Counted from the stretch's first letter, positions 6,262 through 27,158 are shown. The stretch: 64,000 nt of DNA from an uncultured Holophagae bacterium (GCA_963718055.1 CAVQXZ010000001.1:1171605-1235604); one strand, 5' to 3'. Notes: a model not told the origin generated them from the letters alone. A program made the numbers and translations.

Positions 6262-6463
6262 GGCCCGCGGGGCCGGGTGGCGATACAACTCGTGGCCGGC
6301 AGGACCTTCCGCCCCTGGTTTGGCTGGCGGACCCCCCTCATCGATACCACGTTTCGAATTGAAAACCCGAAGTGTCCGCCGTCGTAAACCCTTTGGGGCG
6401 GCTGCCCATCTCAGGGGCAAGGGCGGGCACTTTCTTGAAGAACGTACCGGTGGAGGGAGCTCG

Positions 6464-8692: not shown

Positions 8693-8788
8693 GAGCGTGC
8701 GGGGCACAGGCCCCTGAGCGCACTCGTGATGTGGTGGCCGTGGTTGGCCTCTGCCCCACACGCTCCTCGGGATGCGCTGCGCGCATCC
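8690..8788 (+). repeat. family-1 structured intergenic element, copy A (short subtype)
   Basis: TAGGAGCGTGCGGGGCA...TGCCCCACACGCTCC forms a long inverted repeat, followed by the hairpin GGATGCGC-TGC-GCGCATCC. The leading TAG is the stop codon of the 6464..8692 gene. Confidence 0.8.
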
Positions 8789-8822
8789 TGAAGCTCAGCG
8801 CAGACGAACGCACAGACGGCGA

Positions 8823-9692
8823 ATGCGGTTCGAACTCCCCACCGGTTTCCCGAGCTATCATCCGGATCCAGAGGGATGCTGCGTGGCCGACTGGGTGATC
8901 GGCGATGTCCACGGCTGCTGGGAGACCTTGCAGCGGCTGCTCGAGCGGATCCGCTGGGATCCCGAACGCGACCGGCTGTGGCTCATCGGAGATCTCGTCA
9001 ATCGCGGACCGCGGTCGCTCGAGGTGCTGCGCTGGGCGGCGGGGGAGCCGCGGCTCGACGCCATCCTCGGCAACCACGACCTCCACCTGCTCGCCCGAGC
9101 CGCGGGCGCAGCCGGCTCGCGGGCCGAGGACCGGCTCGACGAAGTGCTCGCGGCGGACGATCGGGAGGTCGTGCTCGAGTGGTTGCGGCGGCGGCCCTTC
9201 CTCCACCGCATCGGAGACACGCTGCTGGTGCACGCCGGCCTGCTGCCGGTGTGGGGAGGCGACGAGGTGCTGTCCCTCGCGGGCTCGGCCAGCCAACGGC
9301 TGCAGGCTCTGCTGCCGCTGCTGGCCCGCAAGCCGAAGCCCAAGTGGAGCGCCGAGGCCACCGGCGATGACCGGCTGGCGGCTGCGGTCGCCATCTTCAC
9401 CCGGCTCCGCGTGGTGCGCGCCGACGGGCGGCCGAAGCTGTCGTTCACGGCGGCGCCGGAGGCCGTGCCTGAGGGGTGCCGGCCGTGGTACGAGGGGTCG
9501 CGGCTGGTGGCGGAGGGGACGCGGGTGGTCTTCGGGCACTGGGCGCTGATGGGCTATCGCCGCGAGCCGGGCGCTGTGTGCATCGACTCGGGATGCGTCT
9601 ACGGTGGCCGGCTGACCGCGCTGCGCCTGGATGACGACACCGCCGTCCACGAGCCGGTGGTGGCCGACGAAGTATCAGCAGTGGAGGAGTGA
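8823..9692 (+). CDS. apaH: bis(5'-nucleosyl)-tetraphosphatase, symmetrical (ApaH)
   Basis: VIGDVHGCWETLQRLLERI...LWLIGDLVNRGPRSLEVL...LGNHDLHLL are calcineurin-like ApaH motifs. The start is uncertain: ATG 8823, or the in-frame GTG a few codons before VIGDVHG. Confidence 0.8.
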   Translation: MRFELPTGFPSYHPDPEGCCVADWVIGDVHGCWETLQRLLERIRWDPERDRLWLIGDLVNRGPRSLEVLRWAAGEPRLDAILGNHDLHLLARAAGAAGSRAEDRLDEVLAADDREVVLEWLRRRPFLHRIGDTLLVHAGLLPVWGGDEVLSLAGSASQRLQALLPLLARKPKPKWSAEATGDDRLAAAVAIFTRLRVVRADGRPKLSFTAAPEAVPEGCRPWYEGSRLVAEGTRVVFGHWALMGYRREPGAVCIDSGCVYGGRLTALRLDDDTAVHEPVVADEVSAVEE

Positions 9693-10192
9693 TGCTCGAG
9701 CTACTCGTGATGCGCCACGCCAAGTCGGACTGGGACGCGGGGGCCGGCGACGACCACGAGCGGCCGCTCGCCGAACGCGGCGTCAAGGCCGCGCGCAAGG
9801 TGGGCCGGTTCCTGACCGCGGCCGACATGGTGCCGGAGCTGATCGTCTGTTCGACCGCGGTGCGCGCGCGAACGACGGTCGAGCTCGCCGCCGAGGCTGG
9901 GGACTGGCACTGCCCGGTCGAGCACACACGGGCCTTCTATGGTGCGGATCCTGCCGCGGTGCTGGCCGAGATCGCGTCGAGGGTGGCGCCGCCACGGGTG
10001 ATGGTGGTCGGCCACGAGCCGACCTGGTCGGAGCTGGTGTCGCTGCTCGTGGGTGGTGGCGGCGTGCGCATGGCGACTGCGGCCGTGGCCTGCCTCGAGC
10101 TCCCGGCCAACGAATGGAGCGCGATCGAGCCGGGCGCGGGGCGGCTGGTCTGGCTGGTGACGCCGAAGCTCTTGCAGGCGGCCGGTGCGTGA
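9692..10192 (+). CDS. sixA: SixA-type phosphohistidine phosphatase (histidine phosphatase superfamily)
   Basis: LLVMRHAKSDW...ERPLAERG...VVGHEPTWSEL shows the RHG and H motifs. ATG overlaps the apaH TGA (TGATG), with an in-frame GTG alternative start one codon upstream at 9689. Confidence 0.8.
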   Translation: MLELLVMRHAKSDWDAGAGDDHERPLAERGVKAARKVGRFLTAADMVPELIVCSTAVRARTTVELAAEAGDWHCPVEHTRAFYGADPAAVLAEIASRVAPPRVMVVGHEPTWSELVSLLVGGGGVRMATAAVACLELPANEWSAIEPGAGRLVWLVTPKLLQAAGA

Positions 10193-10285
10193 TGCTCCCC
10201 GGGATCGCAGCCGGCCGGCGATGTGTAGAATGGCGCCCTGCCACCGTGCAGATGGCCGCCCGAGACGTCGGGCGCGGTTGACACG

Positions 10286-11854
10286 ATGATCGACGAAGAC
10301 GTGTCGTTTCCGCTGCGGGTCGCCTCAGTCGACGTGGGGTCGAACGCGATTCGATTCCTGGTCGCTGACTTTGCCAACGAGGCGCAGTTCATCGGCTTGG
10401 TCTCCGAGCGCGTGCCGGTGCGCCTCGGCCACGGCGTCTATCTCTCGGGGCGGCTCGATCCGACGGCGATGGACGCCGCGGTGGCGACGCTGCAGGGCTT
10501 CCACGCGCAGATGGCGGAGCTGGGCGTCGAGCACTGTCGGGCGGTCGCCACCTCCGCGGTCCGCGAGAGCAAGAACGGCGACGAGCTCATCGACCGGGTG
10601 CGCGACGCCACCGGCATCGAGCTCGAGCCGATCAGCGGCTCCGAGGAGACGCGGCTGGTGCACCTTGCGGTGGCCAACCGGCTGCCGCTCGGACGGCGGC
10701 GGTGGCTGCTGGTCGACCTCGGCGGCGGCAGCGTCGAGGTCTCGCTGGTCGACCGGGGTGGGGCCATTTGGAGCGAATCCCACACCATGGGATCGGTTCG
10801 CCTGCTCGAGGTGCTGACCGAGGCGGGCGCGGATCCGGGCCGCTTCCGGCGCCTGCTCGAGGAGTACGTGTCGGTGCTCAGGGTCCCGGCTGCCGTCGGC
10901 ACCGGCCGCATCGCCGGCTACATCGCGACCGGCGGCAACATCGAGACCCTCGCCAAGCTGGCCGGCGCGCGCCCTGATCCGGAGGTCGGCCGGCTGCCGG
11001 TCGACAGCCTGCGGGCGGTGATCGAGCGGCTGGCCGCGATGTCGTACCGGCAACGGGTGGAGGATCTCGGCCTGCGCGAGGACCGAGCCGACGTGGTGCT
11101 GCCGGCGGCGGCCGTCTACCTGCGGCTCGCCGAGCTGTGCCGGGCCGAGGAGATCATCGTGCCCAATGTCGGAGTCAAGGAGGGCGTGCTCCTCGACCTT
11201 GTCGATCGGCTGACGCGCACCCGCGACCACGCCGATCGCCAGGCGCGCGACGTGCTCGCCGGCGCGGTCACGGTCGGCCGCAAATACCTCTTCGATGAGG
11301 TCCATGCCCGTCACGTCGCCGAGCTCGCGTTGGCGCTGTTCGACCAGCTGCGGCCGCTCCACAATCTCGGCAGCGCCGACCGGAAGGTGCTGCAGGCCGC
11401 GGCCCTGCTGCAGGACATTGGTCAGTTCGTCAGCTACAAAGCCCATCACAAGCACTCCTACTACCTGATCTCGAACACCGAGCTGCCGAACTTCAGTCAG
11501 CGCGAGATGCAGCTGGTGGCGACGGTCGCCCGTTACCACCGCGGAGCAGACCCGACCGCCATGCACCGTCCCTTCGCCGAGCTGAGTGAGGATGAACAGC
11601 AGCGAGTGGTGCGGCTCATCGCCATGCTGCGAGTGGCCCACGCGCTCGATCGGGATCACCTCCAGCGGGTGCGCGACCTCCAGGTCAGAATCGGCAGCTC
11701 CTGGGTGACCCTTCATCTCGAGGCCACCGGGGGCCTGCTCCTCGAAGGGTGGTCGCTCAAGAAGAAGTCCCAGCTGTTCGCCGACGTGTTTTCCAGGAAG
11801 GTCCGGCTGCGTTTCGCCGGCGACGAGGTCGACGAGCATGCCGCAGCGTCGTGA
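10286..11854 (+). CDS. ppx: exopolyphosphatase / pppGpp phosphohydrolase (Ppx/GppA family with a C-terminal HD-like domain)
   Basis: VDVGSNAIRFLVADF, LVDLGGGSVEVSL and ATGGNIETL are ASKHA-fold Ppx/GppA motifs. The C-terminus LLQDIGQFVSYKAHHKHSYYLI fits the HD-like domain. Confidence 0.9.
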   Translation: MIDEDVSFPLRVASVDVGSNAIRFLVADFANEAQFIGLVSERVPVRLGHGVYLSGRLDPTAMDAAVATLQGFHAQMAELGVEHCRAVATSAVRESKNGDELIDRVRDATGIELEPISGSEETRLVHLAVANRLPLGRRRWLLVDLGGGSVEVSLVDRGGAIWSESHTMGSVRLLEVLTEAGADPGRFRRLLEEYVSVLRVPAAVGTGRIAGYIATGGNIETLAKLAGARPDPEVGRLPVDSLRAVIERLAAMSYRQRVEDLGLREDRADVVLPAAAVYLRLAELCRAEEIIVPNVGVKEGVLLDLVDRLTRTRDHADRQARDVLAGAVTVGRKYLFDEVHARHVAELALALFDQLRPLHNLGSADRKVLQAAALLQDIGQFVSYKAHHKHSYYLISNTELPNFSQREMQLVATVARYHRGADPTAMHRPFAELSEDEQQRVVRLIAMLRVAHALDRDHLQRVRDLQVRIGSSWVTLHLEATGGLLLEGWSLKKKSQLFADVFSRKVRLRFAGDEVDEHAAAS

Positions 11855-12431: not shown

Positions 12432-12562
12432 GCCGGACGGTCGAGCCCGCCCAACAGGGTGGGCGGCTGGAGCCGGCAGCGGCGCTCCTGCCTGGGCGCT
12501 GCCGAGGACCTGCCGGCCGGCGCCTTGAGTCTCGGCAATGTGGCGCATCCGTTCTATGATCG

Positions 12563-13426
12563 TTGCCGGTGACCGAGCTCCTGCCAACCAGGGACCCGAT
12601 CGACTCGGGCGCTGCCTACTCGGAGCGGTGGCTCTCCGTGCAGGACGGTGTCGAGCTGAGGGTCATGGAGTGGCGGCCGGACGGGACCGGTCAGCCGCCC
12701 CTGTACTTCGTTGCCGGCTGGGTTTCGGTGGTCGAAGGCTGGAGGCCGCTGCTCGAGGTCCTCGTCCGGCGGCGGCCGGTGGTCTACATCGAGACCCGCG
12801 AGAAGCGGTCGGCGAAGATCGACCGCCGCCGCTTGCGAGTCGACGAGTTCAGCGTGCCGCGGCTCGCCGGGGACCTGTGCGAGATCGCCCGTGTCGTCGG
12901 GGCGGACCGGTCGAGCGCCATCTGGTTCGGCAGCTCGATGGGCTCGACGGCGTTGCTCGAAGCGCTCAAGGGCGCCCGGCTGCCGGCGCGCGGCGCCTTC
13001 CTGATCGGTCCCAACGCGACCTTCAACTTCCCGTGGTGGAGCCTCCCGCTGCTGCGGGTGCCGGCCGCCAGCTACTCGGTCGCCAAGCACCTCGTGATCT
13101 GGTACCTGCGCCACTTCCGGGTCGACGCGCGCCGCGAGCCCGACCAGATGCGGCGGTACGAGAGGACCCTGAACGCCGCCGAGCCGGTCCGGCTGAAGCT
13201 GTCGGCGCGGGCGGTGGTCGGCTACACGCTCTGGCCGAGGCTCGAGACCGTGACCGCGCCGGTGGCGATCGCGTACGCCTCGAGCGACGTCCTCCACGCC
13301 GAGAGCGAGGCCAAGTCGATCGTCGCCACGCTGCCGGCAGGGATCGCGGTCGAGTGTCCCTCCAACACCTACATGCACCGCGCCGAGGTGGCGCGGGACA
13401 TCGAGGAGTTCATCGCCGGCCTCTAG
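12563..13426 (+). CDS. alpha/beta-fold hydrolase
   Basis: PLYFVAGW..., the nucleophile elbow GSSMGS, and a C-terminal H (YMHRAE). TTG start at 12563 is uncertain. The stop TAG lies inside repeat copy B. Confidence 0.7.
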   Translation: MPVTELLPTRDPIDSGAAYSERWLSVQDGVELRVMEWRPDGTGQPPLYFVAGWVSVVEGWRPLLEVLVRRRPVVYIETREKRSAKIDRRRLRVDEFSVPRLAGDLCEIARVVGADRSSAIWFGSSMGSTALLEALKGARLPARGAFLIGPNATFNFPWWSLPLLRVPAASYSVAKHLVIWYLRHFRVDARREPDQMRRYERTLNAAEPVRLKLSARAVVGYTLWPRLETVTAPVAIAYASSDVLHAESEAKSIVATLPAGIAVECPSNTYMHRAEVARDIEEFIAGL

Positions 13427-13547
13427 GAGCGTGTGGGCATAGGCTCCTCGGCGCACGCGAGTCGCAGGCCTCTGGGTGTGTGACGAGTCGTGGTTCCTGG
13501 CTGGCCTGCGCCCCGCGCGCGCCGAGCAGGATGCGCTGCGCGCATCA
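13424..13547 (+). repeat. family-1 structured intergenic element, copy B (long subtype)
   Basis: Roughly 85% identical by eye to the reverse complement of copy F. Hairpins are GGAGC..GCTCC, CTCGGCGCACGCG..GCAGGCC // GGCCTGC..GCGCGCCGAG, and the terminal GGATGCGCTGCGCGCATC. Confidence 0.8.
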
Positions 13548-13730
13548 CAAGCAGCACATGGAGAAGCGGCCAGCCACGCCAACCGGATCGCAACCTCGAG
13601 CGAGAGGCCGATGCCCCGCCCGCTGCCGGCGGTTTGCGCGATTCCGTTCGAAGGCGACCCCCGAGCAGCCCGGGCTGGCTGAACCGGTGCCCGTGCCCGA
13701 TGGTGAGGTCAGGCCGTGATCGACGGTCGG

Positions 13731-16529: not shown

Positions 16530-16540
16530 GAGCGCTCCCG

Positions 16541-17245
16541 TCAGCGGTTGCCGAGCCCGCCGATCAGGGCCGCCCCGAAGACGGTGAGTGTGACCGCAAG
16601 GCACGAGCAGCAGAGGAGGATCGGCAGCAGGACCGCCAGCGCGGCCTTGCCGTACGAGCACTCGTGGGCGCGGGCGACGCCGATGATCTGCAGCGCCACG
16701 AACCAGACCAGAGCCAACAGCCCGCCGCACAGCGGGACCAGGTTCGCAACGTCTGAGGTGTGGGAGTAGCAGATCACCCGCGCCGTGGTCGCCAGCCCGC
16801 GCCTTCCTTCGCCGACGATCAGCAGCATCAGGTGCAGGATGCAGGCGTGGATGGCGAGGCCGATGAGGAGAATGACCGGCATCAGGACGAACAGCCCGAT
16901 CCCGATCGCGACCATCACGCCGGTGCCGATGGCGGCCTCGGCGAGCTCGTCGCGCAGCTCCGGAAAGCCCATCAGCATGAACGGCGACTGCGCGGCGGCC
17001 CAGTAGGCCATGCCGGTCGCGAGCTCGATCCAGGCCATGATCAAGGCGTAAACGAACGGCCGCCCGAGGCCGGCGGGCGCCATGCGGGAGAAGGCGTCGT
17101 CGGGCTTGGTTGCGAACAGTCCGATGGTGCGGAAGAAGCCCTCGACACGGCCGACGCCCGGATCCTCCCAGGGCAGCGCTCCGGGGGAGGGAGCAGCAGG
17201 CGGTGGAGCGGGGAGCGGCGGCGGAAACGGCGTGTTCTCGATCAT
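16541..17245 (-). CDS. Yip1-domain membrane protein
   Basis: Pro-rich N-terminus, then PWEDP..G....F..T....L..P...F and five TM helices. This is typical of bacterial Yip1/YIPF-like proteins. Confidence 0.7.
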   Translation of the reverse strand: MIENTPFPPPLPAPPPAAPSPGALPWEDPGVGRVEGFFRTIGLFATKPDDAFSRMAPAGLGRPFVYALIMAWIELATGMAYWAAAQSPFMLMGFPELRDELAEAAIGTGVMVAIGIGLFVLMPVILLIGLAIHACILHLMLLIVGEGRRGLATTARVICYSHTSDVANLVPLCGGLLALVWFVALQIIGVARAHECSYGKAALAVLLPILLCCSCLAVTLTVFGAALIGGLGNR

Positions 17246-17469
17246 GTTCGCCTCCCAGTGGGAGCCTGGTCAGCGAGTGTAACGTGGAAGACCCACACGT
17301 GGTTCGCGCGTCTTGGACTTTGGTTAGAGGCGAGGCGGTCACCAGAAACGTCCATACACTCACCCGGGCGCGGATCCGGCTTCGCCGTAGAGCTTCGCCG
17401 TAACAAGAGCGGAAGCGGGCGCGGAAGCGAACGTGGCAGGACGCGCGCCTTCTTGCCAGTACGCGGCGG

Positions 17470-18219
17470 TCACGGGCCGGTGCGCAGCTTGGCCGCCACT
17501 TCCTGCCAGAGGGCGGCAAAGGCCATCGCCACCGGCTGTGACGGCATCGTGGCGGCGAGCGGTGCCCGGGTCAGACCCATGCGTTCGACCACGCTCGCCG
17601 ACGGGATGACGGTGCGCAGGAAGGTCGGGTCGGCGAGGCAACTCTCGCACAGCTCGAGGTGCATCGCCTTGCGGCGGTCGACCATCGAGAGGAAGGGCAG
17701 CAGCTCGGTGCGGCCGTGACCGTGCTCGGCGACGAACGCGCGGATCTGCTCGAGGGTGCGGATCGACAGCGTGCTCGGAATGACCGGGACCAGCACCGCG
17801 TCGGCGGCGCGGACCACGGCCTCGGAGACCAGCGACACGCTCGGCGGGCAGTCCATGATCACCAGGTCGTAGCGCGTCGCGAGGGGCTCGAGACGTCGCG
17901 CGAGCTGCTTTCGCGGCTTCTTGGTGGCGTCGAGCTCGAGGTCGAGGCGGCGGAAGGAGAAGTCCGCCGGCAGCAGCGACAGGTTGTCGAACTCGGTCGG
18001 TCGGGCATGCCAACCGAGGTCCGTGGTGTGGTCGACGACGATTCTGGCCCCGCCCTCGAGCTGCGCCGGCACCCGGAGGTAGAAGCTCGCCGCCCCTTGC
18101 GGGTCGAGGTCCCAGAGCAGCGTCCGCGTCCCGCCGAGCGAGGCGGCATGAGCGATGTTGACGGCGGCCGCCGTCTTGCCGACCCCGCCCTTGATGCTCC
18201 AGATTGCCAACGTCCGCAT
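17470..18219 (-). CDS. ParA/MinD-family P-loop ATPase (orphan ParA-like)
   Basis: MRTLAIWSIKGGVGKTAAAVN carries the deviant Walker A KGGxGKT. DLDPQG and VIMDCPPS are also present. The ATG lies 4 nt downstream of the CYTH-CHAD stop. Confidence 0.85.
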   Translation of the reverse strand: MRTLAIWSIKGGVGKTAAAVNIAHAASLGGTRTLLWDLDPQGAASFYLRVPAQLEGGARIVVDHTTDLGWHARPTEFDNLSLLPADFSFRRLDLELDATKKPRKQLARRLEPLATRYDLVIMDCPPSVSLVSEAVVRAADAVLVPVIPSTLSIRTLEQIRAFVAEHGHGRTELLPFLSMVDRRKAMHLELCESCLADPTFLRTVIPSASVVERMGLTRAPLAATMPSQPVAMAFAALWQEVAAKLRTGP

Positions 18220-18223
18220 CGCG

Positions 18224-19762
18224 TCACTCCCCGCCGCCGAACAGCGAATTGTACCGGGACCGGCCTTCGGGCCCGGCGAAGCCCGGGAACACGCTGGCGA
18301 GGTCGTCGCGGAGGCGGTCCTGCCGCTGCTGGAGCGCGCCGGCCAGCCGGCCCATCGCGAGCAGGGTCTCGACCTGGCCAGCGAGCTCTCTCCGGTGCGC
18401 AAACTCGAGCAGCCGCCGCTGCTGGACTCGCACGTCGTTGATGCCGCCGAGGATGTCCTGCAGCAGCTTGAGCTGCTCGACGAGCGGCTCGATCGCGGTC
18501 TCCTCGTACAGGCTGCGGAAGAACTCGAGGAGATAGCGGAGCTTCTTGCCGTCGATGCGGAGGCGGTGCAGGTCTTCGAGCGGTGGGTTCTCGCCGAGCT
18601 CCAGGCCGCGGCGTCGCATGCGCCGATACGCCTTCCGGATTTTCTGCGATGCCAGCTCGCGCACCGGACGGAACGCGATGGGGGGAGGCTCACTGGCGGC
18701 CGGTGGGTCGTCGAGAAACGCCTGCCAACCGTCGAGCAGACTCTGGAAGCGGTCTGAGCGCAGCCCGGCGCGGACCTCGCCGAGCGCGACCTGCCGCTCC
18801 GTCTCGATGACCTCCTGCAGCGGGGCCAGGGCCGCGGCGCTGTCGCCGACCAGGGCGCGGAAGCCATCCATCTCGAGGAGGTAGACGTCGAGGTCGCGGC
18901 AGGGATTGGTCAGCGAACCGAGCCACCGGAACTCCGGCAGGAAGGCATCGAGGCCAGCGGTCGGGAGCACGCCCTTGAGCTGTGCGAGCGCAGCCCGGGT
19001 CCGCCGCGTCGCGACCCGGAAGTCGTGGAGGAACTCGGTGTCGTGGTCGGCGATCACGCCGTCGACGTTCGCGCGCAGGGTGCCGAGCAGGGTGCGCAGG
19101 ACCGACCGCAGCGCGCTGTCGGCGGTCTGAGCTGAATCGAGCTCCAGATTCAGCTTGGAGCTGTAGTCGCCGATGTGGCGGCCGCGGGCGGCCACCGCGA
19201 GCTCTGTGAGGTTGGTGGTGTCATCACTGGTCGCGGCGAGCGCGCGGAGACGCTGGACCAAACCCTCGAAGGTCGCCTCGAAGCCGGGGAGACCGAGCAC
19301 CTCGATCCTCGATATCGGTTCGCCGGTGGCCCGCCCCGAGCTGTCGAGGATGGTCGCGATCTCGAGCTGCAGGAACACCGCGGTGTCGCCGGCTGGGCTT
19401 CGCAAGCGACCGGATTGCCGCTCAACCCGGCACTCGCCGACAGGGAGGAGGGCGCGGATCTCGATGAGGCTCTCGAGTCGCGCGCGGAGGACGGACTCGG
19501 GAAGCTCCCGGGCGAAGCGGACCGAGCCGGTCAACGGGAGTACGTGCGGCGGTTCGCCGCTGCCGTCGATGAAGCGAAGGGCTCGCGCGCCGTCGGTTGT
19601 CTCCTCGGTCAGACGGCCGCCGGACGAGGCGATCCGCCAGTCGAAGGTGTCGAGATAAAGAAAGCGGACCGTCCGGGGACGGTCCGCATCAAAGTCATCG
19701 CCGACTACGCCGCGGAGGGATCGAGCATCCCACTCTTTCGGAAGCCGGAGGGTTGCCTGCAT
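18224..19762 (-). CDS. CYTH-domain plus CHAD-domain protein
   Basis: The N-terminal roughly 180 aa is triphosphate-tunnel (CYTH)-like. The C-terminal helical region has FLHDFRVATRRTRAAL...LHRLRIDGKKLRYLLEFF, the typical CHAD R/K-rich helices. Confidence 0.8.
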   Translation of the reverse strand: MQATLRLPKEWDARSLRGVVGDDFDADRPRTVRFLYLDTFDWRIASSGGRLTEETTDGARALRFIDGSGEPPHVLPLTGSVRFARELPESVLRARLESLIEIRALLPVGECRVERQSGRLRSPAGDTAVFLQLEIATILDSSGRATGEPISRIEVLGLPGFEATFEGLVQRLRALAATSDDTTNLTELAVAARGRHIGDYSSKLNLELDSAQTADSALRSVLRTLLGTLRANVDGVIADHDTEFLHDFRVATRRTRAALAQLKGVLPTAGLDAFLPEFRWLGSLTNPCRDLDVYLLEMDGFRALVGDSAAALAPLQEVIETERQVALGEVRAGLRSDRFQSLLDGWQAFLDDPPAASEPPPIAFRPVRELASQKIRKAYRRMRRRGLELGENPPLEDLHRLRIDGKKLRYLLEFFRSLYEETAIEPLVEQLKLLQDILGGINDVRVQQRRLLEFAHRRELAGQVETLLAMGRLAGALQQRQDRLRDDLASVFPGFAGPEGRSRYNSLFGGGE

Positions 19763-19889
19763 GACTCACTCCCGAACGCGCACCGTCCGAGAAGTGTACG
19801 CCATGCCGCAGCGACTGTGCCTGCCTCCGAAGAATGCGGACGGCGCGGCGGAACTGTCGCCTACTTCTTGGCGGCCGGCTTCTTGGCGG

Positions 19890-20201
19890 CTACCTTCTTC
19901 TTGGCAACCGGCTTCTTGGCACCTTCTTCTTGGCCACCTTCTTCTTGGCAACCGGCTTCTTCGCGGCCACCTTCTTCTTGGCGGCCGGCTTGGCGGCTGC
20001 CTTCTTGACGGCCGTCTTCTTGACGGCCAGCTTCTTCGCGGCCACCTTCTTCTTGACGACCTTCTTCTTGGCAGCCGGCTTCTTGGCGGCTACCTTCTTC
20101 TTGGCAGCCGGCTTCTTCGCCGCCGCCTTCTTCTTGACGACCTTCTTTTTGGCGGCCGTCTTCGCCTTGGCAACCGACTTAGTAGTCTTTGCTTGAGCCA
20201 T
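19890..20201 (-). CDS. histone H1-like lysine/alanine-rich repeat protein (AlgP/Hc1-like composition); the 3-prime end is probably frameshifted
   Basis: [47 protein letters not shown]... The annotated frame ends in the non-repeat tail PRSRLPRRR. Another frame continues the [19 protein letters not shown] repeat to a TAG at 19861-19863. Confidence 0.7.
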
Positions 20202-20345
20202 GTCTACTCTCCGGTTCCTTTCGTGGTGATGTCAAGAGCACAAGGCTGCTTGCAGTTCGATAGTAACACACAAATCGTTCGTTGAACGCAAGCTCCTCAT
20301 GCGCGCTGAACACGAGTGTCGTAGAATTTGAAATTCGGAGAGGAC

Positions 20346-22448
20346 ATGGCCATCACATCGCAAGAGAAAAAATCGATCACACCTGAGTCACCTCAGGCGT
20401 TCATCAATCGCGAGCTGAGTTGGCTGCAGTTTGCACGTCGCGTGCTGCAGCTCGCGCAGGACGGTGAGCTTCCGTTGCTCGAGCGCGTGAAGTTCGCCGG
20501 CATCCTCGGCATGTTGCACGACGAGTTCTTCATGAAGAGGATCAGCGGGCTCAAGCGTCAGATTCGCAACGGTGTGCAGAAGCTGTCACTGGAGGGACGG
20601 ACGCCGCGCGAGGAGTTCGACGTCTGCCGAGCGGAGCTCCTCGCCCAGTGCGAGGAGCTCGCGACGGTCGTCGAGAAGGAGATCCGGCCCGCCCTCGCGA
20701 AGCAGGGCATCGGGATCCACGACTACGCCGACCTGGGCGCAAGCCACAAGAAGGAGCTCGCGCGCTACCTCGAGCGTGCGGTGCTCCCGATCCTGACCCC
20801 GCTTGCGGTGGACGCCGAGCACCCGTTCCCCTTCATCAGCAACCTCGGCCTCAACCTCGCGATCACCATCCGCGAGGGCAAGCGGGAGCGGTTCGTTCGA
20901 CTCAAGATGCCGTCGAACCGGAATCGCTGGGTGCCGCTGGCCGACGGAACCGGTTTCGTCCCCCTCGAGCAGCTGATTGCCGCCAACCTCCGCAAGCTGT
21001 TCACTAAAGGTGAGATCACAGCGTATGGGTTCTGCGTGACCCGAGGCGCGGATGCTGACACCGACCGCCCGGTCGAGGTGGACGACTTCGACCCGATGCT
21101 CTTCCCAGGGAGCATCATCGGCCAGGTCAGCAACGAGCTCAAGGCGAGGAGGTTCGCTGGAACAGTTCGACTTCAGGTCGATGCCCAGATGCCGAAGAAG
21201 ATGCGGACATGGCTCGCCGCGCAGCTCGAGGTCGACGACGCCGACGTGTACTCCGCCAGTCACCCGCTCAGGCTGGTGGACCTCCTGCGCTTCGAGGTCG
21301 AGGGCAGGGACGAGCTTCGCTACCCGCACCACCGGCCGGTGACCCACGCCCGGCTGAAGAAGATGCCGGACGAGCCGGGGGCGATCTTCGACGAGATCCG
21401 GCGCGGCGACATCCTGCTCCACCACCCGTACCACAGCTTCGATACTTCGGTGCTGCGCTTCCTCGAGGTGTCGGCGGCAGACCCCCAGGTGCTGGCGATC
21501 AAGCTCACGATCTATCGAACGTCCAGTGACTCGCCGATCGTGCGTGCGCTCGCCGAGGCGGCGCGTCGCGGCAAGCAGGTCGCCGTGCTCGTGGAGATCA
21601 CCGCTCGATTCGATGAGGCGCCGAACATCGCATGGGGACGGCTCCTCGAGCAGGAGGGCGTGCACGTCGCCTATGGCGTCGAGAAGCTCAAGACCCACGT
21701 CAAGCTGGCGATGGTCGTGCGCGAGGAGAAGGACGGCATCCGCCGCTACGTTCACGTGGGCACCGGCAACTACCACACCGGCACCGCGCGGATCTACGAG
21801 GACCTCGGCATGCTGAGCTGCGACCCCGAGCTGGGCGCGGATGTGGCGGCAGTCTTCAACGAGCTCACCGGTGCCACTCGCTCGGACGAGTACCTCAAGG
21901 TCGTGGTCGCGCCGGAGCAGATGCGCGAGTGGTTTCGCACGCTGATCCGGCGCGAGGCCGAGCACGCCGCCGCGGGGAAGCCTGCTGGGATCACGGCCAA
22001 GATGAACCAGCTGCAGGACCCGGACCTGATCCGCGAGCTCTACCGCGCGAGCCAGGCCGGGGTCCCGATCAGCCTCAATGTCCGCGGGCTGTGCTGCCTG
22101 CGGCCCGGGGTGCCCGGTCTGTCGGAAACGATCCGGGTCTACAGCGTGCTCGGTCGATTCCTCGAGCACGGCAGGATCTACCGGTTCTCCAATGCTGGTG
22201 ACCCCGAGTACTTCATCGGGTCCGCGGACTGGATGAAGCGCAACCTCGACCGCCGCGTGGAGACCATTGCGCCGGTCAAGGACCCGGTTCTCACGGCGGA
22301 GCTGGACGCCATCCTCAAGGTGTACGAGGACGACAATCACTCGGCCTGGGACCTCCGGGCTGACGGCAGCTACGTCCGCCGGCGTCCTGCGAAGGGCGAG
22401 ACGCCCCGTCCCTCACAGCAGGTTTTCGCCGATCACTTCGCTCGCTGA
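20346..22448 (+). CDS. ppk: polyphosphate kinase 1
   Basis: FINRELSWLQFARRVL...PLLERVKFAGI...DEFFMKR is the PPK1 N-terminal signature. Two PLD-like domains follow (KTHVKLAMVVR; HGRIYRFSN). GGAGAGG RBS before ATG 20346. Confidence 0.95.
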   Translation: MAITSQEKKSITPESPQAFINRELSWLQFARRVLQLAQDGELPLLERVKFAGILGMLHDEFFMKRISGLKRQIRNGVQKLSLEGRTPREEFDVCRAELLAQCEELATVVEKEIRPALAKQGIGIHDYADLGASHKKELARYLERAVLPILTPLAVDAEHPFPFISNLGLNLAITIREGKRERFVRLKMPSNRNRWVPLADGTGFVPLEQLIAANLRKLFTKGEITAYGFCVTRGADADTDRPVEVDDFDPMLFPGSIIGQVSNELKARRFAGTVRLQVDAQMPKKMRTWLAAQLEVDDADVYSASHPLRLVDLLRFEVEGRDELRYPHHRPVTHARLKKMPDEPGAIFDEIRRGDILLHHPYHSFDTSVLRFLEVSAADPQVLAIKLTIYRTSSDSPIVRALAEAARRGKQVAVLVEITARFDEAPNIAWGRLLEQEGVHVAYGVEKLKTHVKLAMVVREEKDGIRRYVHVGTGNYHTGTARIYEDLGMLSCDPELGADVAAVFNELTGATRSDEYLKVVVAPEQMREWFRTLIRREAEHAAAGKPAGITAKMNQLQDPDLIRELYRASQAGVPISLNVRGLCCLRPGVPGLSETIRVYSVLGRFLEHGRIYRFSNAGDPEYFIGSADWMKRNLDRRVETIAPVKDPVLTAELDAILKVYEDDNHSAWDLRADGSYVRRRPAKGETPRPSQQVFADHFAR

Positions 22449-22486: not shown

Positions 22487-23407
22487 ATGGCAGATCACAT
22501 GATCCGGGCCATGGCGTGGGGTGGTCGGGTGCGGGTGGTGGCGTGTGACACCACGGCCACCGTGGAGGAGCTGCGACGGATCCACGACCCGTCGCCGGTC
22601 AGCACGGCCGCGGTGGGGAGGATCGCGACTGGCGCGCTGCTGATCGCGTCGATGCTCGAGAAGGCGACCGGCCGGGAGCCGATGGTGACCATCGAGATCG
22701 ACGGCGACGGCCCTGCCGGCAAGCTGCTGGCCACGGCGTCGCCGACGGGCTGGGTGCGGGCGATGGTCGCGAACCCGCTTGCCACCGCCGATCCGAAGAT
22801 CAACGGCAAGCTGAACGTCGCTGGTGTTGTGGGCACTTCCGGCGAGCTCGTGGTGACCAGGGACCCCGGCATCGGGGAGCCGTACCGCGGAGTCGTCCCG
22901 CTGGTGTCAGGCGAGATCGCGCAGGACCTCGCCCGCTACCTGCTGGACTCGGAGCAGATCCCGTCGGCGGTCCTGCTCGGGGTGCACGTGGTTCCTGCCG
23001 GCAGGGTCGGTCACGCCGGCGGCCTGATCGTGCAGCTCCTGCCAGGGGTCAGCGACGAGGAGGCCGACGAGCTGTCGTCGCGCGTGCGCGGGCTCGGCGC
23101 GGTGACCTCGCAGATGGCCGCTGGCGCCGGACCGATGGCGTGGATCGAGAGCCTGTTCGCGAAGGACCTCACCGTTCTGGGCGAGAACCCAGTCCGGTTC
23201 TTCTGCGGCTGTTCGGAACGCCGTGTCGAGACCGCGTTGATGCTGCTCGGGGCCGAAGAGGTCCGGTCGATGATCGAGGACAACCCTGACGGCCCGACGC
23301 TGCTGAACTGCGGTTTCTGCAGGAAGGAGTATGCGGTGTCCACCGCCGATCTGCAGCGCGTCCTGCGCAGCGTGGCGGCGGGCGGCGCCGATGACGACCC
23401 GAATTGA
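22487..23407 (+). CDS. hslO: Hsp33 redox-regulated chaperone
   Basis: C-terminal zinc centre FCGCSERRV...LNCGFCRKEY (CxC...CxxC), with the typical Hsp33 core (GRIATGALLIASMLE, GEIAQDLARYLLDSEQ). Confidence 0.9.
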   Translation: MADHMIRAMAWGGRVRVVACDTTATVEELRRIHDPSPVSTAAVGRIATGALLIASMLEKATGREPMVTIEIDGDGPAGKLLATASPTGWVRAMVANPLATADPKINGKLNVAGVVGTSGELVVTRDPGIGEPYRGVVPLVSGEIAQDLARYLLDSEQIPSAVLLGVHVVPAGRVGHAGGLIVQLLPGVSDEEADELSSRVRGLGAVTSQMAAGAGPMAWIESLFAKDLTVLGENPVRFFCGCSERRVETALMLLGAEEVRSMIEDNPDGPTLLNCGFCRKEYAVSTADLQRVLRSVAAGGADDDPN

Positions 23408-23416
23408 CAGCGCGCG

Positions 23417-23953
23417 GTGAGGGCGTGCGGCGGGGAGCGGAGCTTCCCGAAGAGATGTGGGAGGCCGGCGGTGCAGCGAACGCGACAGCGGGCAGGTGAG
23501 CGGCCAACGAGCCGGGCCGGCGGCAGCGAGCGTTCTCGCGTCCCACCTGAGCGGCGTCTCGCCGCGCTTCTGATACTGGCCGCCGCCGCACTGGCCGCTG
23601 TCGCGTGTTCCTCGGTTGTGACCAAATCTGACGACCCGTGGACCGCGTCGTACGTCGACGACGCCGAGCGGGTGTGGGCCGCCATCCACCGGGCGCTCGA
23701 CGCACTGGGGTATGAGGTGGAGGAGGAGGATCGCGGCGAGGGGAAGATCCGCGCGGCTCAGGTCGCCGAGCGTTCCTATCAGAGTGTCGTGCTCCACATC
23801 GAGGTAATCCAGAAGGCCGAGCTGGTGCGCGTCATCGTTCGGCCATCAGCAGGGGCGACGGGCACCCCCGACGACCACCGGCGGCGCGACGAAGCAGTGC
23901 GCGAGTTCCTCACCGCGCTCGACGAGCACCTCGGCAGGCGCCCCGTTCGTTGA
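23417..23953 (+). CDS. putative lipoprotein of unknown function
   Basis: Hydrophobic stretch LAALLILAAAALAAVAC, lipobox-like. The only in-frame start is GTG 23417, which gives a long Arg-rich leader. No family recognised. Confidence 0.4.
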   Translation: MRACGGERSFPKRCGRPAVQRTRQRAGERPTSRAGGSERSRVPPERRLAALLILAAAALAAVACSSVVTKSDDPWTASYVDDAERVWAAIHRALDALGYEVEEEDRGEGKIRAAQVAERSYQSVVLHIEVIQKAELVRVIVRPSAGATGTPDDHRRRDEAVREFLTALDEHLGRRPVR

Positions 23954-23983
23954 CGGTCAGGCAGGCCGGCAAGCCAGCCGGAC

Positions 23984-24463
23984 TCAGTGCGAGTGGCCGC
24001 CCGCCTCGCCGAAATAGGCCGTGCGGAAGGTGGCGATCAGCGACCGCAGCGCCTCGACGTTGGCCAGATCGGTGGTCTGCTTCGCCTTCATCGCCGCCAC
24101 CTGGATCTTGTGGAGCGTCGTCAGCTGCGCTAAGTACTGCTCCCAGGGCTTGCCGTCCTTGGTCTCGGGCTCCTTGATGCGCTGGCACAGGAAATAGTCG
24201 GCGACGATGTCCTGGATCTCCTGCGCGTGCTGCTCCTTGTTGTCGATCCAGCGGACCAGCTGGTTGTAGTTGACCGGTGTCTCCTTGCCCAGCGCGACGA
24301 TCTGGTTCATCGACTTCTCGACGGTCGTGATGTGCTCTTCGATGAGCTGGACGCGGAGCTCGTCGTCGAAGATCCCGCAAGGGATCTGGCAGTGGGCGTC
24401 TGCCCGGGTGGTGACAGCGAAGGCGAGCGTCGCAATCAGCAGGCCGGTGGACAAGTGACGCAT
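23984..24463 (-). CDS. sodN: nickel superoxide dismutase precursor
   Basis: HCQIPCGIFDD matches the Ni-hook HCxxPCGxY/F. It is preceded by the 23-aa leader MRHLSTGLLIATLAFAVTTRADA. GGAGG RBS before ATG 24463. Confidence 0.85.
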   Translation of the reverse strand: MRHLSTGLLIATLAFAVTTRADAHCQIPCGIFDDELRVQLIEEHITTVEKSMNQIVALGKETPVNYNQLVRWIDNKEQHAQEIQDIVADYFLCQRIKEPETKDGKPWEQYLAQLTTLHKIQVAAMKAKQTTDLANVEALRSLIATFRTAYFGEAGGHSH

Positions 24464-24546
24464 GGGACCTCCTTGGAGAGCGGGTGACTCCCCGTCTCGG
24501 GTGAACCGATCCCCTCGGGACCGGTATTCCACCGCGGCGCGGCCGG

Positions 24547-25839
24547 TCAGCTCTGCGAGTCGTCGAGCTCGACGGTGACGGCGGCGGTGGGCGGATTGAG
24601 CCCGCTCTCTGCCCGGAACACCTTGTTCCGGCCCTGTTGCTTCGCCTTGTAGAGGGCGTTGTCAGCCGAGAGCAGGAGTTCGACCGCGTCCTGCGCGTCG
24701 TCCGGGAAGGTTGCAACGCCGCCGCTGACCGTCACCCGGCCGAGCGGCTGCCCCTTGCCGAACGGAAAGTCGTAGCGTTCGATGCGCTGGAGGATGTTCG
24801 TTGCCGCGCTCAACGCTTGTGCCGGCGACCGGTTCGGCATGATCAGCAGGAACTCCTCGCCGCCGAACCTGCCAAAGATGTCGTCAGCCCGCACCGAGTC
24901 CTGCACCAGTTGAGCGAGGACCCGGAGCGCCTGGTCTCCCGCGATGTGGCCGTTGTGATCGTTGTAGTGCTTGAAGTTGTCGATGTCGAACAGGAACACC
25001 GACACCCGCGCCCCGTGCTGGCGGGCGCCGTACGCGTGCTCGCTGAGGCGGAACTTCAGAGCGCGCTTGTTGTAAATGCCGGTCAGCTCGTCGATGTCGG
25101 CGGCGACCTTGACCTTCCCGTAGACGGTCAGGTTGTTCCAGGTGATCGCCCCGAGCGAGGCGATCGCCTCCATCATTTCCTTCTGCTGGGGGTGGTAGCG
25201 CTGCGGCCGCGAGATCGCGATCACTCCGAGCGCCTCCGCGTCGTGCACCATCGGGGCAGCCACCGCGAACATCGGCCACCCGGGGTTCTCGCTGTAGCGC
25301 GGGTTGTCGAGGGTCTCGCGCCGGTAGTCCTGCCGGTCGAGAGTTTTGCACCTCTCTGCGACGTACCCGATGTGGCCTTCGCCGAAGGACACTTCGGAGC
25401 CGACGCCGAGCCCGCGCTCGGTCGTCGCGCTGGCGGCGACGATCAGTCGGTTCTTCCCTTCCGGCTCGGCAAGCGTCCTCCGCCGGCGGATCAGCACCAC
25501 CGCCTGTTCGGCCCTGAAAATGCGGACCATCGCGTTGAGCAGGACCGGCGGGATCTGGCGGACCTCGGTCTGCGCATTCAGGTCCGCCATCAGCTTGGGG
25601 AGCTCCTTGATGTAGTCGACCAGGAAGCCGAGGTCCTGCTCGATCCTGCGGGCGGTGGCGCCGGGGGCGGCAGGCTCAGGCTCGGCCTTCGGCTCTTCCG
25701 CCAGCTGCCGCCTTGCGGCGCGCAGCTTCGTCCACTGGAGAATCACGACCACCAACAGGATCCCGATCATGACCCCGAGGATGATCTCGATCAGCGCGAC
25801 CTGGGAGATGTCGATTGCAGGCACTCCAACCGTCTCCAA
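24547..25839 (-). CDS. membrane-anchored GAF-GGDEF diguanylate cyclase
   Basis: N-terminal TM helix, then a GAF-like region. DELTGIYNKRAL...VFLFDIDNFKHYNDHNGHIAGD...GRFGGEEFLLI carries an intact GGEEF active site. Confidence 0.85.
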   Translation of the reverse strand: METVGVPAIDISQVALIEIILGVMIGILLVVVILQWTKLRAARRQLAEEPKAEPEPAAPGATARRIEQDLGFLVDYIKELPKLMADLNAQTEVRQIPPVLLNAMVRIFRAEQAVVLIRRRRTLAEPEGKNRLIVAASATTERGLGVGSEVSFGEGHIGYVAERCKTLDRQDYRRETLDNPRYSENPGWPMFAVAAPMVHDAEALGVIAISRPQRYHPQQKEMMEAIASLGAITWNNLTVYGKVKVAADIDELTGIYNKRALKFRLSEHAYGARQHGARVSVFLFDIDNFKHYNDHNGHIAGDQALRVLAQLVQDSVRADDIFGRFGGEEFLLIMPNRSPAQALSAATNILQRIERYDFPFGKGQPLGRVTVSGGVATFPDDAQDAVELLLSADNALYKAKQQGRNKVFRAESGLNPPTAAVTVELDDSQS

Positions 25840-26107
25840 CTGCTTTGCCGCTGCCGTCTACCTCAGGCTGCGCACACGGGATGAGGCTGCGCCCCTCTTG
25901 TGTATCTTATCAGGAGATACGGAAAGCGTGGGACTCACCTCTCGGGCGGCGCCTTCACAAATCAGGGGCGCACGAACGCCGTGAATCAGGGTTGTGAACC
26001 CCAGCAAATTGTGGCATGAACGCGATGCGCTAAGTGACCAGCTATTACTCACGCCGATTCTGACTGATAATATGGACTCGGCAGCGATTCTCGCTAGGGA
26101 GTTCCCG

Positions 26108-27034
26108 ATGGCTGAAAGAAGGCAAAAGACGTACCCTCGCATAGCGCTATCAACACTTGGAGCATCAGATCAAGCAATTCGTGAGCACTATGATGTGGGT
26201 AACGAGTTCTTTCAACTTTGGCTTGATGAAACCATGACCTACTCTGCCGCAATGTGGAAGGATACCCCCGCTTCTCTGGCGGACGCACAGACACGGAAAC
26301 GCGCGTACCTTATTCGGTTGGCTCGCGCCGCAGGGCGCGAGAGGGTGCTTGACGTGGGGTGCGGCTGGGGCTCATGCCTCGATGACCTCATCAGTCACTA
26401 TGGGGTGGGGCATGCGGTGGGCCTCACTTTGAGTCCAGCTCAGGTGGAGTGGATTGAAAGCAGAAAGCTCCCCCGTGTAGAAGTGCGTCGTGAGAGTTGG
26501 GAAGACCACGAAGCAACTGTTCCTTACGATTCGATAATCTCGATAGGGGCCTTTGAGCACTTTGTGAGACCTGAGCACACAAGCGACGAGCGGATTTCCG
26601 TCTACCGAGAGTTCTTCAGCAAATGCCACTCCATGTTGAGACCCGGTGGTTGGTTGGCTATCCAAACACAGGCCTACATGCTAGGTGGGTACTGTGCCGG
26701 TAGTCCGCTCTCGGCTGTCTTTCCCGAATCTGACATGCCGAGACTCTCGGAAATCGCGGCTGGTTTTGATCACCTCTTTGAGTTGGAGTCTCTTACAAAC
26801 GACCCGCAGGATTACTACAAGACTCTTGAAGCATGGGTCGCGAGATTTCATGAGAATCGAGATCGGATCATTGCCGTCTCGAGCCAGAGTCTCTACGAGA
26901 AATTCTCACGGTTCTTGAAAGGTGGCCTCAAGGGGTACGCGAGTCAAGTTTTCATGCTCTTGCGGTTCTCCCTGAGGCGAGTCGATTCTTGTTACCCGGG
27001 ACGCAGCTCCGGAGCGGGTATCGGCACGGTTTGA
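26108..27034 (+). CDS. cyclopropane-fatty-acyl-phospholipid synthase family SAM methyltransferase
   Basis: HYDVGNEFFQLWLDETMTYSAAMW...AQTRKRAYL...VLDVGCGWGS...ISIGAFEHF is the CMAS (CFA/mycolic acid synthase) family pattern. GGGAG RBS before ATG 26108. Confidence 0.8.
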   Translation: MAERRQKTYPRIALSTLGASDQAIREHYDVGNEFFQLWLDETMTYSAAMWKDTPASLADAQTRKRAYLIRLARAAGRERVLDVGCGWGSCLDDLISHYGVGHAVGLTLSPAQVEWIESRKLPRVEVRRESWEDHEATVPYDSIISIGAFEHFVRPEHTSDERISVYREFFSKCHSMLRPGGWLAIQTQAYMLGGYCAGSPLSAVFPESDMPRLSEIAAGFDHLFELESLTNDPQDYYKTLEAWVARFHENRDRIIAVSSQSLYEKFSRFLKGGLKGYASQVFMLLRFSLRRVDSCYPGRSSGAGIGTV

Positions 27035-27158
27035 ACACTGCGGAGTGCTGGCATGGTTCGAACAGATGGGTAAGAGGTGATTCTGCTGACTCGTGATTTC
27101 ACACGAACTTGCGTGGACGCGCGCGGTGGAGTCATAAGATTGGAATCAAGGCGACGAG

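Follow-up and report, generated by a model that had tools for sequence, protein, structure and literature searches.

A CHAD–ParA gene pair as a candidate module for organising polyphosphate granules in bacteria

To our knowledge, polyphosphate (polyP) granules are universal in bacteria; in several species they are evenly spaced on the nucleoid, and they are tied to starvation survival and to exit from the cell cycle. A locus in a 64,000-nucleotide stretch of DNA from an uncultured Holophagae bacterium (hereafter the window) raises the question of whether an ATPase of the ParA/MinD family is devoted to these granules. Here ppk1, encoding polyphosphate kinase 1, is transcribed divergently from three minus-strand genes, coding in order for a lysine/alanine-repeat protein, a CHAD-domain protein and a ParA/MinD ATPase; all four lie where an initial annotation of the sequence had placed them. 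That annotation suggested a candidate polyP-granule module at this locus, in which the ATPase may be a dedicated positioning factor for the granules. We find that the conserved core, as judged from gene order, is a module of two genes, coding for a CHAD adaptor and the ParA/MinD-family ATPase, and that this pair is the best current candidate for an ATP-driven machinery organising polyP granules. The window has a GC content of about 69%, and its closest relatives are Holophagae metagenome-assembled genomes (MAGs) of the Acidobacteriota, with ParA identities of 96% (L003, PQAJ01000025) and 93% (L001).

ParA/MinD genes usually lie beside the genes for their cargo, and the gene neighbourhood is an accepted route to cargo inference (PMC10241942, PMC11407121). 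The frequency with which a CHAD gene is followed by ParA had been set beforehand as a test of the proposal, and we counted it in two surveys. A genome scan, with ParA as the query and one genome taken per species, returned 20 loci; a metagenome scan, with a ParA alignment as the query, provided the best 80 loci at 46–91% identity, 78 of which have upstream sequence adequate to judge. At all seven genome loci with ParA identities of 49–96% (L001–L007) a full-length CHAD gene lies directly upstream on the same strand, and these loci come from two Holophagae, a Thermoanaerobaculaceae, an Acidobacteriota, two alphaproteobacterial MAGs and a Jatrophihabitantaceae actinobacterium; none was seen in the same scan beside the ParA relatives at 36–46% identity (Novosphingobium, Hahellaceae). 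CHAD genes at the metagenome loci were detected with a hidden Markov model built from CHAD proteins, and a full-length CHAD gene, covered across its N-terminal and CHAD domains alike, is present upstream in 61 of the 78 (60 directly adjoining and one 445 nt away). Broken down by ParA identity, the linkage is found at 7/7 metagenome loci at 60% or above, 35/48 at 50–59%, and 19/23 at 46–49%. The metagenome loci span GC contents from 0.35 to 0.74, and the CHAD–ParA pair is therefore phylogenetically broad. Sampling from the CHAD side gives the same arrangement, with ParA directly downstream in 2/2 loci. The linkage is thus conserved, and no parB gene adjoins ParA in the window or at any inspected locus with called genes, although parS was not searched for; the proposal thus passes the test set for it, in which absent linkage or an adjoining parB would have counted against it.

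The two genes are also closely packed. The window has exactly 4 nt (CGCG) between the CHAD TGA and the ParA ATG, and the corresponding junctions in relatives are either the same +4 nt spacing, a TGATG overlap or an ATGA overlap; on the evidence of these junctions, CHAD and ParA are translationally coupled. In a neighbour-joining tree of 95 ParA sequences the CHAD-linked state dominates one large clade, with the unlinked proteins making up a few subclades, singletons and outgroups. The pairwise distances of ParA and CHAD co-vary (Pearson 0.87, Spearman 0.54; 54 loci).

The unlinked ParA proteins have other neighbours: six lie beside glycogen phosphorylase, three between prfB and dtd and four after an aminotransferase gene, and there are singletons besides. 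The six glycogen-associated proteins (L029–L032, L039, L047) form a subclade that is nested within the CHAD-linked clade and lacks a CHAD gene; each has an HDOD-REC-GGDEF gene on its upstream side and glycogen phosphorylase (Pfam Phosphorylase, E = 0) directly downstream, and in L029 the ParA gene occupies about 6001–6747 and the glgP-like gene 6827–9334. P0284 (L104), a related protein, is a fusion of ParA with a sucrose-6F-phosphate phosphohydrolase. These sister ATPases, beside glycogen phosphorylase or fused to a sucrose-phosphate phosphatase, suggest that ATPases of this clade may have been adapted to serve other storage-polymer machineries, in this instance those of carbohydrate storage. 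The closest outgroups are Novosphingobium proteins; those of L008, L009 and L011 (7995–8765) are beside PspA and a sigma-54 activator and 5' of rimP-nusA-infB-like genes, that of L010 (5968–6759) adjoins a DUF3419 gene, and the cargo of this outgroup is not evident.

The proposed partner of the ATPase carries a polyP-binding module. Its CHAD domain matches PF05235 at 197.5 bits (cut-off 25.6) and aligns end to end with Chlorobium CtCHAD (3e0s, 6qv7), a domain of the long, two-bundle type. The residues with which CtCHAD binds polyP were defined by mutagenesis by Lorenzo-Orts et al. (PMC6537752), and mapping through the alignment indicates that seven of the eight contact residues are kept in the window protein (H246, R249, R253, R289, R409, Y410 and K432); the eighth differs, CtCHAD R438 corresponding to E429. 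CHAD domains are described as binding polyP and as decorating its granules (PMC6537752, and Tumlirsch and Jendrossek 2017 as cited in other papers).

The N-terminal 200 residues of the CHAD protein have no match in Pfam, NCBIfam or a PDB sequence search, and PF01928 (CYTH) matches neither the CHAD protein nor any of its 120 closest homologues, in all of which CHAD is the sole Pfam domain. An AlphaFold2 model built on 67 sequences has a pLDDT of 91.5 and a pTM of 0.85, and when it was compared with the PDB using Foldseek, all 37 matches at E ≤1e-3 were CYTH/TTM proteins (TM 0.45–0.6; for example 5a65, 2gfg and, for E. coli YgiF, 5a60), among them thiamine triphosphatase, BH2851, YgiF and class IV cyclases. 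As structure prediction with fold search matched CYTH/TTM proteins only, where sequence searches had failed, we assign the fold of the N-terminal domain from the predicted model as that of CYTH, an eight-stranded tunnel. The ExExK motif is absent from the window protein and from six aligned relatives, strand 1 reading QATLRL in the window protein and LFRF, YRFQ or TIEF in relatives, and with this motif lost the domain is degenerate and probably non-catalytic. The description of this protein as a CYTH-CHAD fusion therefore stands for the CHAD domain, by Pfam, and for the CYTH fold, by AlphaFold2 and Foldseek; the ExExK motif and the Pfam CYTH match that the name implies are missing, and the suggestion that the domain acts on a polyP-type substrate does not apply to a catalytically degenerate protein.

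The ATPase begins MRTLAIWSIKGGVGKT, and the SIKGGVGKT segment within it is a deviant Walker A motif with signature lysine K10 and catalytic lysine K15. In a 10-sequence ParA alignment (A1), K10, K15, D37, D39 and D123 are invariant, with the Walker A' and Walker B aspartates kept. Profiles for the wider family are passed (AAA_31, 107.9 bits, cut-off 27; CbiA, 44.1 bits, cut-off 25.4), and sequence reading and Pfam together bear out the initial annotation of a ParA/MinD ATPase with KGGVGKT starting 4 nt past the CHAD stop. All of the NCBIfam cut-offs for named subfamilies are missed, including those of the partition-ParA model NF041546 (ParA_partition; 90.9 bits against 180), the BcsQ model TIGR03371 (65.4 against 157.85), the MinD model TIGR01968 (37.1 against 212.9) and the RepA and SopA models. 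The best solved relatives found by PDB sequence search (the 'ParA family protein' 8ray, Soj 1wcv and McdA 6non) have E values of 1e-19 to 1e-11 and are equally distant. Members of the family are publicly named 'chromosome partitioning protein' or 'cellulose biosynthesis protein BcsQ'; no bcs or other cellulose synthesis genes were found in any locus inspected, and no carboxysome genes were seen at these loci. From the profile cut-offs and the gene context we rejected chromosome or plasmid ParA, BcsQ, MinD and McdA as identities for the ATPase.

The matrix on which such an ATPase might act is suggested by its basic residues. The protein has neither an N-terminal extension nor a C-terminal membrane or amphipathic helix, and it ends in ...WQEVAAKLRTGP. 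At positions 182, 183 and 184 (R182, R183 and K184) at least 96% of family members have a basic residue, R218 is conserved, and the pI is 8.9 for the window ATPase and 9.1 for the family median. R183 aligns with R189 of B. subtilis Soj, which we take to be a DNA-binding arginine. The ATPase probably binds the nucleoid through the conserved basic residues around R183.

A second line of evidence comes from the polyP genes around the pair and from fusions of the ATPase itself. Clustering of the open reading frames (ORFs) that flank about 69 loci identified no universal neighbour besides CHAD, the others being lineage-specific; with neighbours that vary and polyP genes that recur, ppk1 is a frequent companion of the pair and not a defining part of it. 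It is near the pair in L001–L004, L021, L026–28, L046, L055, L083, L101, L107 and L112, and it is divergent in the acidobacterial group and at a small number of other loci; a few loci have a metallophosphoesterase or a His_Phos_1/SixA-like gene. A ParA relative of 38% identity is part of a tightly packed, same-strand operon with the order His_Phos_1-CHAD-ParA-Ppx-Ppx-PPK1. Of the polyP module that was first proposed, what holds is the CHAD–ParA core, with ppk1 and the H1-like gene as neighbours in particular lineages.

We searched 1.84 billion cluster representatives with HMMER, which yielded 393 proteins at E ≤1e-30; the best 150 were inspected, many of which have C-terminal extensions, and 20 extended proteins were tested for domains. 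In six of these 20 (P0252, P0256, P0262, P0265, P0278 and P0387) ParA is joined to a canonical CYTH domain, which carries an EIEFK motif and matches Pfam CYTH at E values between 6e-9 and 3e-20; other extended proteins have a degenerate CYTH-like extension. In all three fusion loci with adequate flanks the CHAD gene overlaps the start of the fusion gene, and one fusion locus has the order PPK2, Na/Pi cotransporter, CHAD, ParA-CYTH, His_Phos_1. Each of these loci encodes two CYTH-fold domains, of which the CHAD-borne one is degenerate and the ParA-borne one is either canonical (L102, L103) or degenerate (L105). We considered whether the fused CYTH is the N-terminal domain of the adaptor relocated to ParA, and rejected this: the window N-terminal domain and the ParA-fused CYTH give a weak, in-register hhalign match (E 0.065) and no significant BLASTP match, and they are better regarded as distant CYTH-fold domains. 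The ATPase is nevertheless tied to CYTH and CHAD domains in two ways, by adjacency and by fusion, which together constitute the strongest evidence available from sequence for joint action of the ATPase, CYTH and CHAD.

A third component, rich in lysine, accompanies the pair in some lineages. In the window this is a repeat-only protein of AKKP and AKKK units, 45% lysine plus arginine with a pI of 12, whose profile scores are under the cut-offs (HC2, 30.8 against 40; hist_H1_lk_Burk, 33.9 against 80), and these sub-threshold matches indicate that the similarity to histone H1-like proteins is compositional. The ORF is present as annotated, with 103 residues. An 11-nt insertion (AAGAAGAAGGT) near 19921, relative to L003 and also to L001 and L021, throws its last nine codons out of frame; the stop common to all three relatives lies further on, at 19862-19864. 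The frameshift is either a repeat slippage variant or an assembly error. AKKP-repeat genes are present in L001, L003 and L021. Other lysine-rich proteins are encoded 5' of CHAD in L050, L056, L066, L076, L090, L101, L111 and L112: four low-GC loci have a 66-residue protein starting MSKVVKKK at this position, L090 has one of 44 residues, and L101, L111 and L112 have an HhH domain followed by a long lysine-rich tail (Table 1). Within L001–L100, eight of the nine lysine-rich ORFs are directly upstream of the CHAD gene, and overall such proteins, repeat-only or HhH with a lysine-rich tail, are found directly 5' of CHAD in at least four lineages. The recurrence of these proteins at the same position points to a basic, polyanion-binding protein as a recurrent, non-homologous accessory. 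By analogy with AlgP, the H1-like protein probably bridges polyP and DNA.

How might the pair act? With ATP bound, ParA/MinD ATPases form dimers that attach to the nucleoid or the membrane, and a partner bound to the cargo stimulates the ATPase and releases ParA (PMC11407121, PMC10241942). We propose that the CHAD domain would bind the surface of the polyP granule, making the CHAD protein a granule-bound adaptor, and that an ATP-bound ParA dimer would bind a polyanionic matrix, for which nucleoid DNA is the likeliest candidate. The granule-borne CHAD protein would then bind ParA and stimulate its ATPase, hydrolysis would strip ParA locally from the matrix around each granule, and the granule would move up the resulting ParA gradient by a diffusion ratchet analogous to those of ParABS and McdAB. 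The expected outcome would be granules that are separated, evenly spaced and equally inherited, with the lysine-rich protein adding a passive tether between polyP and DNA. These claims differ in strength. We judge it very probable that, through the CHAD protein, the ATPase has a function dedicated to polyP, and the conserved pairing, the coupling, the polyP context and the fusions all favour the dedicated ATPase that was first suggested. That its role is to position granules by a diffusion ratchet is a proposal by analogy with known systems, to which we incline slightly.

Several observations weigh against the positioning model or qualify it. We infer the contact between CHAD protein and ParA, the stimulation of the ATPase, the identity of the matrix and the positioning of granules, and we infer DNA binding from conserved basic residues alone. 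A charged N-terminal peptide, such as most ParA partners use, is not obvious in the CHAD protein, whose fold begins at residue 2. At residues 48–59 of the ATPase (about 18043..18078) the basic loop of the family, FRVKPKVKGGGK, reads LRVPAQLEGGAR in the window lineage. The AKKP-repeat gene is absent in L002, L004 and L026, in which the gap between ppk1 and CHAD is 176–199 nt, and ppk1 lies near the pair at 11 of about 69 loci (about one in six). About 20% of close ParA relatives do not adjoin CHAD, so the ATPase is not strictly tied to it. Furthermore, the spacing of polyP granules in S. elongatus is independent of the only ParA-family ATPase of that genome, and ParA-based positioning is therefore not universal. 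Taking these together with the evidence above, we suggest only tentatively, and with slightly less than even confidence, that there is a widespread and unrecognised ParA/MinD–CHAD system that positions and partitions polyP granules with ATP, has ParA-CYTH variants, and frequently includes a lysine-rich binder of DNA and polyP as a third component. As a separate observation, the lineages with the altered loop LRVPAQLEGGAR are those that carry the AKKP-repeat protein.

An alternative is that the ParA is dedicated to polyP and does not move granules on the nucleoid, acting instead as a spatial or temporal regulator in the manner of MipZ, MinD, FlhG or BcsQ; it might set where granules nucleate, restrict their fusion or size, or control access by PPK or PPX, and the matrix could be polyP itself, with the CYTH-fold domain as a sensor of polyP ends. 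We consider this possible, if unlikely. The polyP context is equally strong for such a regulator as for the positioning model, and the fusion of ParA to a canonical CYTH domain, with its tripolyphosphate-binding tunnel, hints at a direct coupling to polyP chemistry and not at a passive adaptor. A basic family (median pI 9.1) with a conserved lysine-rich loop could bind any polyanion, and the adaptor is without an N-terminal peptide like those of ParB or McdB. However, most characterised small ParA-type ATPases that lack a membrane helix use the nucleoid as their matrix, and the nucleoid is also indicated by the DNA-binding proteins, HhH or H1-like, that recur next to the module.

A signalling unit, in which CYTH-CHAD would act under polyP control as a class IV adenylate cyclase or triphosphatase and ParA would connect energy status with chromosome partitioning or division, appears improbable to us. 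The Acidithiobacillus folD-ppk-parA-CHAD cluster, with its CYTH-CHAD protein ACAci, has been read in this way (PMC6416229, PMC10892726), and canonical CYTH motifs are indeed present in the ParA-CYTH fusions. Cyclase or triphosphatase activity is nonetheless unlikely for the window protein, judged by the failure of Pfam CYTH across its 120 homologues and by the missing ExExK in the protein and six relatives; ParA has no adjoining ParB partner and scores far under the partition-ParA model, and the stop–start coupling suggests that the two proteins are synthesised in fixed proportion and may function as a complex. Finally, an ordinary partition ParA or BcsQ-type protein that is beside CHAD by accident, as the public names and the top PDB sequence matches to ParA and Soj proteins might suggest, is very hard to credit given that no parB adjoins ParA in the window or the inspected loci, that the ParA_partition, RepA, SopA, BcsQ and MinD cut-offs are all missed, that cellulose synthesis genes are not nearby, and that chance cannot explain CHAD adjacency at 61 of 78 loci and across three phyla.

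We now compare the CHAD–ParA pair with characterised systems. It resembles McdA–McdB in pairing a small ParA-type ATPase, without a specific-DNA-binding N-terminal domain, with one adjoining gene for a cargo partner, and in a cargo that is a protein-coated cytoplasmic inclusion on the nucleoid, the cargo genes often being nearby. It differs in that its partner is a folded 512-residue protein of a CYTH fold and CHAD encoded upstream, whereas McdB is small, disordered and encoded downstream; no conserved small, McdB-like ORF was found downstream of ParA in 69 loci. The proposed cargo is a granule of an inorganic polymer, and the ATPase keeps the Walker A signature lysine, with a similarity to McdA (E 1.5e-11) no closer than that to Soj. 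With ParABS it shares the ATPase superfamily, the deviant Walker A and a probable nucleoid binding via basic residues near R183, but no ParB adjoins the window ATPase (parS was not searched for), which scores 90.9 bits against the 180 of the partition-ParA model.

The adaptor has its own counterparts. Like the phosins (R. eutropha PptA, E. coli YgiF and CtCHAD), it has a long-type CHAD with conserved basic polyP-binding residues, and it shares with YgiF the architecture of an N-terminal TTM domain and a C-terminal CHAD; unlike them, its TTM domain has lost ExExK and is missed by the CYTH profile, and the translational coupling of its gene to that of a ParA ATPase has no described counterpart among characterised phosins. 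The lysine-rich protein is similar to AlgP of P. aeruginosa and to PhaF and PhaM as a lysine/alanine/proline-rich, H1-like polypeptide tied to storage granules, which for PhaF and PhaM are of polyhydroxybutyrate. AlgP is needed for even spacing of polyP granules (PMC9239181). The window protein differs in being repeat-only, about 103–113 residues long and without an N-terminal domain, in falling under the H1-like/HC2 cut-offs, and in being present in some lineages only; AlgP is, moreover, not known to act with an ATPase.

Closest in gene content is the Acidithiobacillus folD-ppk-parA-CHAD (ACAci) cluster, where the same three gene families are clustered (PMC6416229 Fig. 3; PMC10892726 Fig. 1). 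It was drawn in 2019 and in 2024 with parA labelled as chromosome/plasmid partition and CYTH-CHAD read as an adenylate cyclase (PMC6416229, PMC10892726). Its CYTH is described as keeping active-site residues, and no role in granule positioning was proposed there; the likeness is one of gene families. In agreement with the initial annotation, which knew of no polyP-specific ParA system, we found no paper linking ParA to polyP granules in the literature searched, although an earlier passing remark on the CHAD linkage is possible. A 2025 review names AlgP as the sole positioning factor and marks the ATP dependence as 'unknown', and a 2026 mBio study refers to a mechanism 'yet-to-be-discovered' (PMC13052382, PMC13556221); reviews of 2025–26 know of no ATPase that positions the granules.

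The coordinates of the module, of its neighbours and of the comparable features at related loci are collected in Table 1.

Table 1. Features of the CHAD–ParA locus in the window and of related loci.
Feature	Sequence	Coordinates	Strand	Evidence and remarks
ParA/MinD-family ATPase	window	17470..18219	-	249 aa; Pfam AAA_31 E 7e-31, CbiA E 2e-11
Deviant Walker A KGGVGKT, residues 10-16, including signature lysine K10	window	18172..18192	-	direct sequence reading
CHAD stop/ParA start junction, 4 nt (CGCG)	window	18220..18223	-	direct sequence reading
Two-domain CHAD protein, proposed cargo adaptor	window	18224..19762	-	512 aa; Pfam CHAD E 4e-58
CHAD domain, polyP-binding module, residues 221-451	window	18410..19102	-	Pfam; CtCHAD alignment E 4e-42
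N-terminal CYTH/TTM-fold domain, residues 1-205, without ExExK	window	19148..19762	-	AlphaFold2 and Foldseek
Histone-H1-like AKKP/AKKK-repeat gene	window	19862..20201	-	ORF as read 19890..20201, 103 aa; conserved stop 19862-19864
Divergent intergenic region, H1-like gene/ppk1	window	20202..20345	.	blocks conserved among close relatives
ppk1, polyphosphate kinase 1	window	20346..22448	+	alternative TTG start at 20328; four PPK1 Pfam domains
Ppx/GppA-family phosphatase	window	10286..11854	+	context only, 5.6 kb past ParA end; Pfam Ppx-GppA E 2e-46
apaH (ApaH)	window	8772..9692	+	NF001204 259 bits, cut-off 176
HhH (HHH_5) domain with long Lys-rich tail	L101	5865-6359		directly 5' of CHAD-ParA
HhH (HHH_5) domain with long Lys-rich tail	L111	4992-5543		directly 5' of CHAD-ParA
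HhH (HHH_5) domain with long Lys-rich tail	L112	5473-5925		directly 5' of CHAD-ParA
ParA-CYTH fusion, 504-530 aa	L102	6001-7566		overlapping upstream CHAD gene
ParA-CYTH fusion, 504-530 aa	L103	6001-7515		overlapping upstream CHAD gene
ParA-CYTH fusion, 504-530 aa	L105	3157-4749		overlapping upstream CHAD gene

The ppk1 product passes both PPK1 models (NF003921 at 874.5 bits against 701; TIGR03705 at 731.8 against 465.85) and contains all four domains of the enzyme (PP_kinase_N, PP_kinase, C_1 and C). The Ppx and ApaH genes, which had been cited in support of a polyP theme, are both real by their profile matches, the Ppx/GppA-family gene falling under the NCBIfam equivalog cut-offs. Two ORFs among apaH, ppx and an OPT transporter gene, at 9631..10281 (+) and 12538..13719 (+), match no Pfam or NCBIfam family. 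No second ParA or CHAD gene was found in the 64-kb window, nor any Rfam family or tRNA. A search of 16400–20500, including the intergenic region that separates ppk1 from the H1-like gene, gave no sigma-70-type promoter match and nine terminator-like sites, against 2.3 expected. At 19664..19687 (-), within codons ~26–36 of the CHAD gene, the coding strand has a 10-bp GC-rich hairpin followed by TTTCTTTATC, which might act as an attenuator or be there by chance. Two non-coding blocks, 19763..19861 and 20202..20330, are nearly invariant in L001, L003 and L021 while the flanking coding sequence diverges; the block 5' of the H1-like gene includes …TTACTATCGAACTGCAAGCAGCCT…CTTGACATCACCACGA…, the second is the gap between the H1-like and CHAD genes, and both are possible regulatory elements.

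The stretch 22487..25839, which flanks ppk1, holds the gene for Hsp33 together with those for a nickel superoxide dismutase (23984..24532) and for a GAF-GGDEF protein (24547..25839). The distant locus L112 (1–1894) likewise has Sod_Ni and GAF-GGDEF genes beside ppk1 and CHAD–ParA, and their presence in both places indicates conserved synteny. The following segment, 26000..32600, has a lower GC content (0.54–0.59 against ~0.69) and may have been horizontally acquired; it codes for a cyclopropane-fatty-acid-synthase-like methyltransferase, a PilZ-methyltransferase fusion, a REC-histidine kinase and a 910-residue hybrid histidine kinase with two kinase cores.

We conclude that the CHAD–ParA pair is a concrete and testable candidate, found in many phyla, for the machinery that positions polyP granules. 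Systems of the general ParA/MinD kind are known; the proposed cargo and the type of adaptor are new, in a pair that is conserved across phyla and mis-annotated in public records. If the proposal is correct, this would be the first ParA/MinD system for a storage inclusion of an inorganic polymer, it would correct the annotation of an ATPase family now called 'BcsQ' or 'chromosome partitioning protein', and it would add to the ParA/MinD family both a new class of cargo and a new type of adaptor, a folded CHAD/TTM protein.

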